Below, piece by piece: positions 42,031 through 47,211 of a stretch of 47,211 nucleotides of DNA (within the stretch, counting starts at the first letter, position 1; each line of letters begins with the position of its first letter). The notes beneath the pieces were generated by a model that saw only the letters and a list, made by a program, of their open reading frames with translations, did no database searches and was not told the origin of the DNA. The DNA comes from Gemmatimonadota bacterium (lineage in GTDB: Bacteria > Gemmatimonadota > Gemmatimonadetes > Longimicrobiales > RSA9), in contig JBBDRO010000028.1 of the NCBI GenBank assembly GCA_040905425.1, forward strand, positions 2,265-49,475, read 5' to 3'. Made by a program: the position numbers and the translations under genes.

Positions 42031-42966
42031 TCAGCGGCGCCAGGTCCAATCGTCCGAGCGGTAGCGCGCCAGCAGATGGAGGGCATGCCGCTGCTCGGAG
42101 GAATCCATTGGGGCCGGAGCAAAACGGGTGCCGAGGGCCGCACCGAGCGCCGCCGCGATGGGCTCCACGAGCGCGGCGGGCGCCATCACACGTCCCAGTT
42201 CGCGTGCTACCGTGGTGCTGCCATGCGACGATGACGCCGCCACTGCCGAGGGCTCCAGCCAGCCAGCCGGCGCACCCTGCGCCCCCGGATCCCGCGTGGC
42301 GGCGGTCGCCGCCACGTCCACGCGCAGGCGGGTCACCGCGGACTGGCTGCCGTCGAGCAGGATGGAGCCGTGTTGCAGGAGGGCGTCCCCCTCCCGGCGC
42401 TGCGCGCTGCCCACCAGCTTCCGGCCGCCGCACACCACCTCGCCGGCCGCGGGCACCGCAAAGCACGGCCCCGCCTCGGCCACGCTCAGCCGGCCGGCGC
42501 CGCCCGCCAGCTCGGCCGGCACGCCCACGGCGCGCAGGGCGGCCACGAGCGCCTGGTTGATGCGCAGGTAGGCCTCACGCGGGCGGCCCAGGTCGGCCAC
42601 CCGCCCCACCACGGCGTAGGTGAGCTCGTGGGTGTGAAGCACGGCCAGGCCGCCGGTGGGGCGCCGCACCAGCTCCAGCCCCGCGGCCGCCGCGGCGTCC
42701 GCGTCATAGCGGCCGCGCGCCGGCTCGTTGCGTCCGAAGGACAGGCAGGCGGGCGCCCAGCGGTAGAGCCGCAGCACGGGTGCCGCGCCCGCCCGCGCGC
42801 CGGCCAGCAGCGCCTCGTCCACCGCCATGTTGAGCGCGCCCGGCAGCGCCGCGGGCGTCCCCGGAGCCGCGTCCCCCCCGGACGCGCCACGGGCGACGGA
42901 GGCTGCGGCGCCCTCGTCGCCCGTGAACGGATCCAGGATGAGGCGCCAGGCGCCTGTGTGACTCAT
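42031..42966 (-). CDS. lipM: Lipoate-protein ligase family protein, LipM-type octanoyltransferase
   Basis: NMAVDEALL, LRLYRW, RRPTGGLAVLH, CF, KLVGSAQ, LLQHGSI. No C-terminal LplA domain. Adjacent to gcvH. Confidence 0.75.
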   Translation of the reverse strand: MSHTGAWRLILDPFTGDEGAAASVARGASGGDAAPGTPAALPGALNMAVDEALLAGARAGAAPVLRLYRWAPACLSFGRNEPARGRYDADAAAAAGLELVRRPTGGLAVLHTHELTYAVVGRVADLGRPREAYLRINQALVAALRAVGVPAELAGGAGRLSVAEAGPCFAVPAAGEVVCGGRKLVGSAQRREGDALLQHGSILLDGSQSAVTRLRVDVAATAATRDPGAQGAPAGWLEPSAVAASSSHGSTTVARELGRVMAPAALVEPIAAALGAALGTRFAPAPMDSSEQRHALHLLARYRSDDWTWRR

Positions 42967-42991
42967 ACCGGCTCGGCCGCCGGTGCCACGC

Positions 42992-43381
42992 TCACCCGTC
43001 GATGTGCGTTTCGTAGGCCGCGGCGTCGAGCAGCGCGCCCAGCTCATCGGGCTCGGTGACGCGCAGCTTGATCATCCATCCCGCACCGTAGGGATCACTG
43101 TTGATGGTGGCCGGATCGTCGGCCAGCGTTTCGTTGATCTCCACCACCTCACCGGTCACGGGGCAGTAGAGGTCACTCACCGCCTTGACCGCCTCCACCG
43201 TGCCGAAGACGTCCATCCTGCTGTACGTGCTGCCCGGCTGGGGGAGCTCCACGTAGACAATGTCACCCAGTTCGCCCTGGGCGTAGTCCGTGATGCCCAC
43301 CACGAAGACGTCATCCTCTGCCGTGGGCTTCAGGTACTCGTGTTCTTCCGTGTAGTGCAGATCCCCGGGAATCTCCGCCAT
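42992..43381 (-). CDS. gcvH: Glycine cleavage H protein / lipoyl carrier
   Basis: YTEEHEY, GITDYAQGELGDIVYVELP, lipoyl-Lys motif EAVKAVSD, INSDPYGAGW. Confidence 0.96.
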   Translation of the reverse strand: MAEIPGDLHYTEEHEYLKPTAEDDVFVVGITDYAQGELGDIVYVELPQPGSTYSRMDVFGTVEAVKAVSDLYCPVTGEVVEINETLADDPATINSDPYGAGWMIKLRVTEPDELGALLDAAAYETHIDG

Positions 43382-43458
43382 GTCCACCTCCGCTGCCGCT
43401 GCGCCAGGGCGGGTCGATCCCGCCGAGGCGGTTAGCTTAGAGGGGGGTCAGGAGGCCG

Positions 43459-43677
43459 TCAAGGAACGCGGATCTCGTTCAGTTCCCGGAGGATGGTGGT
43501 GAGGCGGCGCAGCTCCCGCTCCACGGTCTCCAGACTCTCCCGCACCTCGGGGTCGTCGGCCACCGGCTCGTCGAGCAGGAGCTGAATGTGGCCGAGCGCC
43601 GCGGTGAGGGGGTTGTTGGCGTCGTGGCGCACGCGCCGCACGAGCGCCACCATCTCGGCAAGCCGTTCATCGGACAT
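43459..43677 (-). CDS. Stand-alone HisKA (DHp) domain small protein
   Basis: 72 aa, H-box RHDANNPLTAALGHIQLLL plus a second helix. GGAGG RBS, own stop. Confidence 0.75.
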   Translation of the reverse strand: MSDERLAEMVALVRRVRHDANNPLTAALGHIQLLLDEPVADDPEVRESLETVERELRRLTTILRELNEIRVP

Positions 43678-43834
43678 GCTTCCTCCAGCCATCTACGGGT
43701 GTCATCCGAGTGTAGCGCGGCACGCGGGGCGGCGGCAAGCGGGCACCCGCCGCGCACCTCACTCGAGCCCCCACCGCGCCCTACCCTCACCCTCGCGGCG
43801 CGCCCTACCCTTGATCCCACTGCGCGCAACACCC

Positions 43835-43863
43835 TTGATCCGGCCGGGCGCATGCGTTAGCGT
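43835..43863 (+). promoter_or_regulatory. Possible sigma-70 promoter TTGATC-N17-TAGCGT
   Basis: Correct spacing immediately upstream of the structured region. Confidence 0.4.
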
Positions 43864-44012
43864 AGTCGCGACGACGCCAGCACGGCGTCGCGGGGGCCGG
43901 CACCGGGAGGCAAGGCTGAACGGTGACGGACCGCGGGATGGCCGCCGGGTTGGACCCGGTGAGCGGACCCGCCATGAAGCGCCCCAGTTTTCCCGAAAAA
44001 GGAGGTGATCCC

Positions 44013-44075
44013 TTGGCTAGTTCGAGTCTCATCCGTAACCCGACACGGGCAAGCGATCGCCGTTTCAGCGCGTAG
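44013..44075 (+). CDS. 20-aa small ORF MASSSLIRNPTRASDRRFSA
   Basis: TTG start 7 nt after GGAGG within AAGGAGGTGATCC (13-nt complement of the 16S rRNA 3' end). TAG at 44073-44075. Confidence 0.55.
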   Translation: MASSSLIRNPTRASDRRFSA

Positions 44076-44142
44076 CTGAACATCGCGAGATCTTCCCGCT
44101 ACGACGGTTGCTGAAACGCATCGCGTCGGGTTGCGGAAGACC

Positions 44143-44186
44143 AAAAGAAGCGCCCCATCGGCTGAGCCGGTGGGGCGCTTTCTTTT
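44143..44186. terminator. Strong, potentially bidirectional intrinsic terminator
   Basis: AAAAG-AAGCGCCCCATCGG-ctgag-CCGGTGGGGCGCTT-TCTTTT. Confidence 0.85.
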
Positions 44187-44226
44187 GCGGGGGTTGGGGG
44201 GGCGGGGCGGGGGCGGGCGCCGTCGC

Positions 44227-44628
44227 GCTCATGCAGCCTTCCGGCGGGGGGGGCCGGCGGCGGCGGCGGCGGGCGCGCGCTTATGCAGACTCCCGGCGTG
44301 GCGCGCGCTTACGCAGCGTGGCGCCGCCGGGCGCGCGTTGATGCAGCCCTCCGGCGTGGCGCGGGCTTATGCAGCGTGGCGCCGCGCTTATGCGGCGTGC
44401 CGGGCGGGCCGGGCGTACGATTCCCACCAAACGCGCACGCGCGGCCACCGAGCGGCGCCGTTGCAGCTCTGACCGCAATTATTGCCACAAATCCTCCAAG
44501 CGCCGGCGCGCCTCGCGCCGTTGCAGCTCTGATTGCAAATAGTGCCACAAATCCAGCAACCGCGCGTGCGGGAAGCGCGCGTGCGCTTCTGACAACATTC
44601 CCGCCGCCGCCGACCCGCGCTTATGCAG
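44227..44628. repeat. Intergenic repeat field: 7 GCTTATGCAG-like motifs plus a 45-bp direct repeat with 60-bp period
   Basis: Motifs at 44227, 44279, 44307, 44337, 44365, 44386, 44619. GCGCCGTTGCAGCTCTGA..GCAA...TGCCACAAATCC at 44455 and 44515. Confidence 0.8.
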
Positions 44629-44765
44629 CATTCCGCCCACCTCCCCGCCCCTGAGCCACACCCGCGCCCGCCCTCCCCCCCCACGCCTGGCAACCCGCCG
44701 CTGCCCACCCTACGTTAGCAACGTGGTACGTACGTTAAACGATCGATTCCACCGTGAGGCATATC

Positions 44766-45938
44766 ATGTCCGTGTTGACGCCCGACGTGGCGCACCTGCC
44801 CCTCACCAGCCTGGCCGAGGACGAGCAGATGTTCCGCGACATGGTGCGGCAGTTCGCCGAGGAAACCATCCGGCCCCTGAGCCACGACATGGACCGGGAC
44901 GCGAAGATGGACGCCGGGCTCATCGAGCAGCTCTTCGAGCTCGGCCTCATGGGCGTGGAGATCCCTGAGGAGCACGACGGGGCCGGCTCCACGTTCTTCA
45001 CCGCCGTGCTCATCGTGGAGGAGCTGTCCCGCGTGGACCCGAGTGTGGGCGTGCTCGTGGACGTGCAGAACACGCTCGTCAACAACGCCTTCCTGCGCTA
45101 CGGCACGGCCGAGCTGCAGGGGCGCTTCCTGCCGGGACTGGCCACCTCCAGGGTGGGTGCCTACGCGCTCTCGGAGGCGGGCTCCGGCTCGGACGCCTTC
45201 GCGCTGGCGTGCCGGGCGGAGGAGTTGGAGGGCGGCTTCAAGCTGACCGGGCAGAAGCTGTGGATCACGAGCGGCGGCGAGGCGGAGGTCTTCATTGTCT
45301 TTGCCACCGTGGATCCCGAGGCGGGCTACCGCGGCATCACCGCCTTCATCGTGGAGCGGGACATGCCCGGCTTCACGGTGGGCAAGAAGGAGGACAAGCT
45401 GGGCATCCGCGCCTCCTCCACCGTGGAGCTGGTGCTGGACGGCGTGGAGGTGCCGCAGGAGAACGTGCTGGGTGAGGTGGGCAAGGGCTACAAGATTGCC
45501 ATCGAGACGCTGAACGAGGGCCGCATCGGCATCGGCGCTCAGATGGTGGGTCTTGCCCAGGGCGCCCTGGACCACACGCTGGCTTACGTGCAGGAGCGCC
45601 AGCAGTTCAACCGCCCCATTGCCGACTTCCAGGGCGTGCAGTTCCAGCTGGCGGAGATGCGTACGCAACTCGAAGCCGCGCGCCTCATGGTCTACAACGC
45701 CGCCCGCCTGAAGGATGCCGGTCTACCCTTCATCGTGGAGGCGGCCATGGCCAAGCTGTACTCGTCGGAGGCGGCCCAGCGCGTGTCCTCCATGGCCATC
45801 GATCTCTTCGGTGGCAACGGCTTCTCGAAGGAGTACCCCGTGGAGAAGCTCTACCGGGATTCCAAGATCGGCACGATCTACGAGGGCACCACAAACATGC
45901 AGAAGCAGACCATCGCCAAGTACATCCTGGCGGAATAG
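44766..45938 (+). CDS. Acyl-CoA dehydrogenase (short/branched-chain type)
   Basis: YALSEAGSGSD, GQKLWIT, KLGIRASST, GRIGIGAQ, RQQF, IYEGT (catalytic Glu). Confidence 0.94.
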   Translation: MSVLTPDVAHLPLTSLAEDEQMFRDMVRQFAEETIRPLSHDMDRDAKMDAGLIEQLFELGLMGVEIPEEHDGAGSTFFTAVLIVEELSRVDPSVGVLVDVQNTLVNNAFLRYGTAELQGRFLPGLATSRVGAYALSEAGSGSDAFALACRAEELEGGFKLTGQKLWITSGGEAEVFIVFATVDPEAGYRGITAFIVERDMPGFTVGKKEDKLGIRASSTVELVLDGVEVPQENVLGEVGKGYKIAIETLNEGRIGIGAQMVGLAQGALDHTLAYVQERQQFNRPIADFQGVQFQLAEMRTQLEAARLMVYNAARLKDAGLPFIVEAAMAKLYSSEAAQRVSSMAIDLFGGNGFSKEYPVEKLYRDSKIGTIYEGTTNMQKQTIAKYILAE

Positions 45939-46046
45939 CATGTAAGCGACGACGCCCGTCCGCCTTCCGCCGCCGCGGCACGCGCCCGGAGCGCCGCCGC
46001 ATCCCCTCCATCGGGGAACGCGGCGCGCCGGGCGCTGCTCGTAGGA

Positions 46047-46151
46047 AGAGGGGTGCGCCGCGCGCTATCCAGACGAGAGGGGTGCGCCGCGCGCTACCCG
46101 GACGAGAGGGGTGCGCCGTGCGCTATCCGGACGAGAGGGGTGCGCCGCGCG
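46047..46151. repeat. 29-bp tandem repeat, ~3.6 units
   Basis: AGAGGGGTGCGCCGYGCGCTAYCCRGACG units at 46047, 46076, 46105, partial at 46134. No spacers. Confidence 0.9.
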
Positions 46152-47148: not shown

Positions 47149-47211
47149 GGCGGCCTCAGCGGCGGCCTCAGCGGCGGCCTCAGCGGCGGCCTCAGCGGCG
47201 GCCTCAGCGGC
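47149..47211. repeat. 12-bp tandem repeat (GGCGGCCTCAGC) x5.25 at the window edge
   Basis: Read directly. Confidence 0.95.

Follow-up and report, generated by a model that had tools for sequence, protein, structure and literature searches.

A conserved structured RNA with a long Shine-Dalgarno sequence and a short ORF paired to its 3' UTR defines a new family in a subset of Gemmatimonadota

Positions 43870-44186 (+ strand) of the window, that is, of the whole 47,211-nucleotide stretch of Gemmatimonadota DNA analysed here, contain a real, conserved structured RNA of ~315-317 nt, which represents a new family in a subset of this phylum. The evidence for it comprises eight homologues found with nhmmer, their alignment and a consensus structure. 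The RNA is conserved, its helices covary, the geometry of its short ORF is maintained and it is independent of the neighbouring genes; from the sequence, we infer its transcription and translation, as well as any switch or output. We tentatively favour, at slightly less than even confidence, an independently transcribed small structured mRNA of ~315 nt that couples translation and folding. An invariant stretch complementary to 12-17 nt of the 16S rRNA 3' tail would set the ribosome on a TTG or GTG start. A long interrupted rod would be built from the ORF of 20-22 codons as its 5' strand and the 3' UTR as its 3' strand. Every ribosome reading the ORF would unzip the rod and, conversely, the rod, together with an internal complement of the ribosome site, could limit ribosome loading. 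The output would then be likelier at the RNA level than through a functional peptide, as state-dependent stability, exposure of the 3' strand or ribosome occupancy. The first-pass annotation of this DNA had noticed the element and proposed a ribosome-sensing switch, a ribosome-sequestering RNA or a dual-function sRNA, any of which it may be. Its observations are partly confirmed by the present analysis, and its interpretation is partly supported.

The RNA lies within a 1.07-kb intergenic gap. On one side of the gap, an operon-like group on the - strand comprises a HisKA-like gene (43459-43692, 72-77 aa), gcvH (42992-43387) and a lipoate-protein ligase-like ORF (42031-43047) that overlaps the end of gcvH. 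On the other side, an acyl-CoA dehydrogenase gene on the + strand is listed from 44754, with the ATG at 44766 as the likelier start. The HisKA-like gene, located directly upstream of gcvH, encodes a stand-alone histidine-kinase dimerisation/phospho-acceptor segment only. Its best NCBIfam stretch is AtoS 390-452 (E = 7e-10), its second ATG, after GGAGGA, looks like the true start, and tblastn retrieved the gene in 6 out of 80 loci (L007, L009, L015, L021, L026 and L070). The first 70-95 residues of the ligase-like ORF have no counterpart in relatives; tblastn matches begin at residues 72-126, so its real start is probably further in. Two tandem repeats were noted beyond the gap, a 29-nt unit repeated 3.6 times with 93% matches at 46025-46151 and a 12-nt unit, GGCGGCCTCAGC, repeated perfectly 5.2 times at 47149-47211 and continuing past the end of the window. 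ARAGORN identified no tRNA or tmRNA genes in the window.

The RNA folds at -164.4 kcal/mol (z = -5.42), and none of 100 shuffled sequences folded as well. The fold of the minus strand is just as good (z = -5.58), so the strand cannot be told from the folding energy alone. Given this equal fold of the complement, and since a consensus scan of 43400-44900 found neither a promoter nor a terminator, the window alone cannot settle the matter. The RNA is put on the + strand by a G-U pair (alignment columns 226/287) kept in eight out of nine sequences, by the ribosome site and its ORF, and by the T-rich tail. Reading by eye, a promoter-like sequence (TTGATC, 17 nt, TAGCGT) occupies 43836-43864 (+ strand) and ends ~6 nt before the proposed 5' end. 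A similar arrangement, TTGNNN and TANNNT separated by 17-19 nt (for instance, TTGCGG...TAGAGT), was read at the same place in the eight homologues.

The first-pass annotation had suggested looking for homologues near gcvH and examining their covariation. We gathered 80 loci using gcvH as the anchor. All of them carry the label Gemmatimonadota or are unclassified, and their best identity is 69%, so the set contains neither the source genome nor one closely related to it. Homologues were found in eight of them (L005, L007, L015, L021, L025, L026, L042 and L070), upstream of gcvH and on the opposite strand, with nhmmer E-values ranging from 7.7e-95 to 2.7e-48. Turning all nhmmer filters off yielded no further homologue in the 80 loci, none of which carries a second copy of the RNA, and it was absent within 6 kb of gcvH in the other 72. 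A covariance model, R1, scored the eight loci at 98.9-163.5 bits and the next best at 16.5, with nothing beyond the eight homologues below E = 0.05. Motif matches in L018, L027, L037 and L041 lie in continuous coding sequence and were rejected as homologues, while a search of a plasmid collection with the window RNA retrieved no homologue. The comparison set, thus, comprises nine sequences (the window and eight homologues), three of which are close relatives (L007, L015 and L021). All nine retain the ribosome site, a TTG or GTG start, an ORF of 20-22 codons, its TAG stop and a terminator hairpin. The alignment also contains the conserved stretch GACACGGGCAAGCGATCGCC, and its 5' domain is shorter in L070 and L042.

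The fold contains both 5' hairpins proposed by the first-pass annotation (43872-43890 and ~43933-43972), and the first of them is conserved, helix 1 being 100% paired in the seven sequences with letters there. The rest of the 5' domain (43895-43972) forms two hairpins, the second with a conserved GGACCGCGGGA...CCCGC core; helices 3 and 4 of this domain are 95.0% and 85.2% paired, respectively. Downstream, all four pairings that had been proposed between the ORF and the 3' UTR are present in the sequence and in the minimum-energy fold, with compensatory changes among the nine sequences. In the RNAalifold consensus, they correspond to three stacked helices that form an interrupted rod. Its 5' strand (44026-44069) consists of ORF codons 5-19, and its 3' strand (44110-44141) lies in the 3' UTR and includes the invariant ATCGCGTC. 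An 8-base bulge, ACGGGCAA (44045-44052; alignment G182-G190), has an invariant GGGCAA and no partner on the 3' strand. The stop codon is located near the apex of the rod; with the ORF as its 5' strand, this position means that every translating ribosome would have to unzip it.

Rod helices 6, 7 and 8 are 96.0%, 95.5% and 85.7% paired, with 5, 2 and 4 pairs, respectively, changed on both sides, as are 7 out of 13 pairs of the terminator helix 9. Across the 63 consensus pairs, 92.7% are paired, compared with 35.4-43.8% when partners are slid by 1-3 columns, and 21 pairs are changed on both sides, compared with 6-10 when slid. None of 500 shuffles reached any of five covariation measures, although kinship alone can beat shuffles in a set of nine sequences with three close relatives. 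The slid controls, together with how many different pair types occur, nevertheless make the rod between the ORF and the 3' UTR convincing.

The translation initiation region consists of AAAGGAGGTGATCC, C and TTG (43997-44015, + strand). The 16S-complementary AAGGAGGTGATCC reported at 43999-44011 before the TTG is indeed there, and it is the sole exact copy in the 47,211 bases; at two or fewer mismatches, it has seven matches in the window, compared with 0.72 expected. Counted against what we take to be the sequence of the 16S rRNA 3' tail, 14 contiguous bases are complementary in the window and 12-17 nt across the nine sequences, with a predicted pairing of -25.4 to -29.9 kcal/mol. All nine sequences share twelve invariant bases, AGGAGGTGAT and the C after it, between variable flanks, and in each of them 6-7 nt separate GGAGG from the start. 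The initiation features, like the pairing of the ORF with the 3' UTR, are therefore kept in the relatives. The ribosome site is mostly open in seven of the nine minimum-energy folds. A literature search with the motif returned only uses as 16S primers among the matches listed. The RNA is, we infer, almost certainly ribosome-bound.

Discussion of long Shine-Dalgarno sequences usually centres on harmful or stabilising effects. STAB-SD sequences, for instance, act as 5' stabilisers of Bacillus mRNAs, and the Gemmatimonadota RNA resembles them in its near-perfect long Shine-Dalgarno sequence, by which it could retain a 30S subunit and thereby be protected. If the RNA were a decoy for the 16S 3' tail or for 30S subunits, acting by titration or being itself stabilised by the bound subunit, this would explain why the conserved complementarity extends well past the GGAGG core and why its predicted pairing is so strong when the ribosome sites of neighbouring genes comprise, by reading, only 5-6 nt. 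A pure decoy, however, would need neither a start codon at ideal spacing nor an ORF of fixed length, and each RNA offers a single site. STAB-SDs likewise differ in this respect, since the site here is followed, at ideal spacing, by a start codon and a conserved ORF. We, thus, consider a decoy improbable.

In the window, the ORF (44013-44075, + strand) comprises 20 codons followed by TAG (44073-44075), and its product is MASSSLIRNPTRASDRRFSA, with TTG read as M. As the first-pass annotation had asked of its conservation, the length, the spacing to the start and the TAG stop are kept in all nine sequences: there are 20 codons in seven of them, 21 in L005 and 22 in L042, where we read two insertions of 3 nt each in the alignment. 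The start is TTG in eight and GTG in L042. This is the only frame open in all nine sequences. Two alternatives were discarded: an in-frame longer ORF (43923-44075, 50 aa) meets a stop one codon upstream of the start in four out of nine sequences and five codons upstream in one more, and a GTG ORF in frame +1 (44005-44079) contains stops in five out of nine. The minus strand has long stop-free frames (73-109 codons). A minus-strand protein was also rejected, as the open frame differs between members relative to the invariant nucleotides and has no Pfam match.

The peptides are hydrophilic, basic and rich in Arg and Ser, with no hydrophobic stretch in any of the nine sequences, in agreement with the earlier description of a hydrophilic product unlike type I toxins. 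Pfam and NCBIfam searches with the peptides retrieved no family match. The C-terminus reads TRASDR[RL]IGA in six out of nine, TRASDRRFSA in the window and RASDR in L042. The codons of this conserved end are invariant at third positions too, which indicates a constraint on the nucleotides, and the N-terminal half of the peptide changes freely. In L005, a 1-nt deletion relative to the invariant GGGCAAGCG results in an unrelated C-terminal half; despite the shift, it retains an ORF of 21 codons with TAG in nearly the same place. The number of variable columns, 8/5/8 of 19 at the three codon positions, shows no codon-position bias. Distant pairs differ by 6-8 non-synonymous and 0-3 synonymous codons, whereas L007, L015 and L021 show five synonymous and no non-synonymous differences. 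Selection, therefore, seems to act on the ribosome site, on an open frame and on how the RNA folds; the peptide does not look selected and is probably secondary. It is this pattern that makes an RNA-level output more likely.

The same data were weighed for an ordinary small-protein gene, in which the 20-residue hydrophilic peptide would be the product, and the Shine-Dalgarno sequence and the rod would only ensure that its expression is high, stable or conditional. All nine sequences keep the ORF, the purely synonymous changes in the close trio could also mean that the peptide is functional, and the C-terminal motif of six sequences has related ends in the window and in L042. Invariant third positions in precisely these codons, the unrelated C-terminus of the frame-shifted L005, an N-terminal half free to change, the lack of codon-position bias and the absence of Pfam or NCBIfam matches all count against this explanation, which we regard as doubtful, albeit deserving of serious consideration.

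Several elements were tested as parts of a possible switch. The invariant GGGCAAGCGATCGCC (44047-44061, + strand), located inside the ORF and absent from the first-pass annotation, complements the ribosome site, GGTGATCC(C)TTG, with predicted duplexes of -16.8 to -23.1 kcal/mol in all nine sequences. The duplex is part of the minimum-energy fold in two of them (L005 and L007). Equally good 16-mers amount to 134 out of 31,464 in the window (0.43%), 13 out of 24,730 in L007 and 15 out of 24,724 in L025 (0.05-0.06%), so the internal complement is statistically weak in the window. Its two sides being invariant, it cannot show covariation. Base-by-base comparison revealed that the three substitutions of L005 in this element all keep the pairing with the ribosome site; in the rod part, the non-standard AG, GA and AG found at three out of five pairs are attributed to L005. 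That the internal complement could close the ribosome site is, thus, suggestive only.

A second candidate is the hairpin within the UTR (TCTTCC/GGAAGA and CGACG/CGTCG) that the first-pass annotation had described as mutually exclusive with the rod. It is present, and when the ORF was blocked in the model, an equivalent hairpin formed in all nine sequences, the freed 3' strand pairing with an apical segment. Compared with dinucleotide-shuffled apical segments, its fold z ranges from +0.20 to -3.37; out of 200 shuffles, none was at least as stable in L005, 6-18 were in six sequences, and 52 and 115 in the other two. This alternative hairpin is, therefore, not clearly above chance.

The terminator-like hairpin with its T-rich tail (44143-44186, + strand) has 21-nt arms that are 86% complementary. 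It is GC-rich, and by reading, the T-runs of its relatives are often short or interrupted. It forms in all nine sequences, with and without the ORF blocked, which leaves no attenuation logic; being unaffected by either modelled state, it leaves no output visible in cis. The 11-nt direct repeat GAAGCGCCCCA, at 43976 and 44147, had been noted as a duplicated terminator arm, and both copies are present. They are specific to the window: in all eight relatives, copies of the arm are limited to 5-8 nt, lie at other positions and are chance-like. The proposal that the 3' arm of the terminator has two possible partners does not hold, as the repeat is not conserved and the terminator is folded in both states.

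These observations bear on whether the RNA acts as the leader or as an attenuator of the acyl-CoA dehydrogenase gene that follows it, with the ORF encoding a leader peptide. The trp and his operons are controlled by leader-peptide transcription attenuators. Like these, the RNA combines a short ORF and competing helices with a terminator that precedes a metabolic gene. In the window and in seven out of eight homologous loci, the RNA is flanked by the divergent gcvH group and, downstream, by a dehydrogenase gene in the same direction, which speaks for an attenuator. In contrast to the trp and his systems, no helix here competes with the terminator, none of the nine peptides contains regulatory codon runs or a repeated codon class, and the downstream gene looks independently expressed. 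Promoter-like and Shine-Dalgarno sequences of its own lie between the terminator and the dehydrogenase gene. By our count, 28 other loci lack the RNA although this dehydrogenase gene lies upstream of their gcvH, while L042 has the RNA without the dehydrogenase, following a TetR-family gene and facing a VWA-domain gene. The RNA is, thus, most probably a free-standing gene, and we consider it very unlikely that it is an attenuator of this dehydrogenase.

The distance from the RNA to the dehydrogenase gene is ~97-343 nt in the homologous loci and 568 nt in the window, where the spacer (44186-44700) is swollen by repeats to ~570 nt. Seven GCGCTTATGCAGC-like 13-mers lie there (44225-44629), along with tandem units of 52-58 nt and, at 44455-44574, two tandem copies of a 60-nt unit; inverted arms, G-rich and C-rich, span 44185-44217 and 44661-44693. 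An AT-richer palindrome, TACGTTAGCAACGTGGTACGTACGTTAAACG (44715-44750), closely precedes the dehydrogenase start and looks like an operator or promoter region. The dehydrogenase of the window scores below every NCBIfam equivalog cut-off (best 399.8 compared with 640) and does not qualify as an equivalog of isovaleryl-CoA dehydrogenase.

Type I toxin mRNAs with fold-back inhibition, such as hok and tisB, resemble the Gemmatimonadota RNA in the long-range pairing of the coding region with the 3' end and in the alternative closure of the ribosome site. They differ in their peptide, which here is hydrophilic and poorly conserved, and in that no antisense RNA was seen here in the consensus scan of 43400-44900. 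A toxin mRNA under fold-back control would account for the long-range pairing and for a possible closure of the ribosome site, but it is extremely unlikely given a basic peptide devoid of hydrophobic stretches in all nine sequences, a ribosome site mostly open in most folds and no evident antisense gene. Dual-function sRNAs with a short ORF, such as SgrS/SgrT, RNAIII/hld and SR1/SR1P, are similarly small, structured and terminator-ended; unlike in these, the ORF here fills one whole strand of the main helix.

Consistent with the earlier description of an unrecognised RNA, the Rfam search of the window gave no match at the gathering score. Below the threshold, only terminator-like matches and CC2171 (RF01867), a link that the first-pass annotation had missed, were retrieved, with no riboswitch or cis-regulator aptamer. 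The CC2171 model scores 18.6 bits in the window and 29.1 in its best relative, L042, compared with a gathering score of 75. We searched the plasmid collection with the L042 RNA, which produced only matches of 23-34 nt in seven records; the two inspected, H4 and H7, lie over the ribosome site. This search provided two readable alphaproteobacterial loci, L081 and L082. The latter, from Methylobacterium bullatum, contains a true CC2171 (84.3 bits). Conversely, R1 scores 13.9 bits on L082, aligning the ribosome site only, with 121 model positions deleted; this stretch is shared because both RNAs complement the same rRNA tail. Membership of CC2171 was, thus, rejected, since neither covariance model recognises the other RNA outside the ribosome site.

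The resemblance between the two RNAs lies in their layout. By our count, the L082 CC2171 has a 17-nt complement of the rRNA tail, followed by GTG and an ORF of 24 codons ending in TAG; in its fold, the ORF forms the 5' strand of a rod with the stop near the apex, and a terminator follows. Both RNAs, therefore, have a long anti-16S site, a GTG or TTG start at the same spacing of ~7 nt and a short ORF paired with a segment just upstream of the terminator. The CC2171 ORF has 24 codons in the Methylobacterium copy and is annotated with 28 in Caulobacter, compared with 20-22 in Gemmatimonadota. Moreover, the CC2171 model starts 8 nt before the ribosome site, whereas the Gemmatimonadota RNA has an extra structured 5' domain of ~130 nt, and the interior sequences and peptides of the L082 copy are unrelated to those of Gemmatimonadota, the latter being a further argument against an ordinary small-protein gene. 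The Gemmatimonadota RNA is an analogue of CC2171 and not a member of it.

The literature searches did not find a functional study of CC2171. In the dataset of Schrader et al. 2014 (PMC4117421), the Caulobacter copy, CCNA_R0051 (2404309-2404501), is marked 'Translated CCNA_03965', and its entry as a translated CDS speaks for a small-protein gene. The same dataset gives ribosome-profiling values of 0 (PYE) and 2049 (M2G) RPKM and RNA-seq values of 1334 (PYE) and 1696 (M2G) RPKM, an abundance that would suit a decoy. In Methylorubrum, CC2171 has been confirmed by Northern blot, and according to that report no condition is known to affect it (bioRxiv 10.1101/2022.01.24.477521). A predicted CC2171 copy is listed in PMC5596092, and cell-cycle data for CC2171 are listed in PMC5988900.

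The gene context of the analogues differs. The neighbour of CCNA_R0051, CCNA_02254, is entered as an isovaleryl-CoA dehydrogenase in PMC4117421 and is convergent, while the dehydrogenase is co-directional in the window and absent near the Methylobacterium copy. No such dehydrogenase gene was found within 3 kb in either L081 or L082, which also argues against the attenuator explanation. A shared isovaleryl-CoA dehydrogenase link between the window and Caulobacter was discarded, since the window protein has no equivalog score and no such gene lies near the Methylobacterium and Azospirillum loci. The recurrence of this class of dehydrogenase neighbour in two phyla may be coincidental. In L081 (2996-3194, Azospirillum brasilense plasmid ABSP7_p1), the 24-nt CC2171 initiation region, GAAAGGAGGTGATCCAATGTCTCAT, precedes an ORF of 57 codons with a signal-peptide-like N-terminus, which looks secreted and has no Rfam match. 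The maximal ribosome site is, in this locus, reused before a different small gene.

A broader reading, to which we give limited credence, is that the Gemmatimonadota RNA and CC2171 form one 'ribosome-unzipped' class across phyla. In both, a 12-17 nt stretch complementary to the 16S tail would load a ribosome, which would have to open the rod made of the short ORF and its 3' UTR. The RNA would read out or buffer free-ribosome or initiation capacity, or release a translation-dependent RNA signal, in each case with no functional peptide.

Gemmatimonadota are a widespread phylum of soil and water, for which our searches found almost no literature on regulatory RNAs and nothing relevant on small RNAs among the matches listed. 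The present analysis provides a defined RNA family in this phylum, with a searchable model (R1). For the orphan Rfam family CC2171, it adds a structural counterpart from a distant phylum, which suggests that the functional unit is the layout (a maximal ribosome site, an ORF that forms one strand of a rod and a stop near its apex) rather than the sequence. A natural RNA that holds 12-17 nt of complementarity to the 16S tail invariant would make a physiological use of long Shine-Dalgarno sequences testable.
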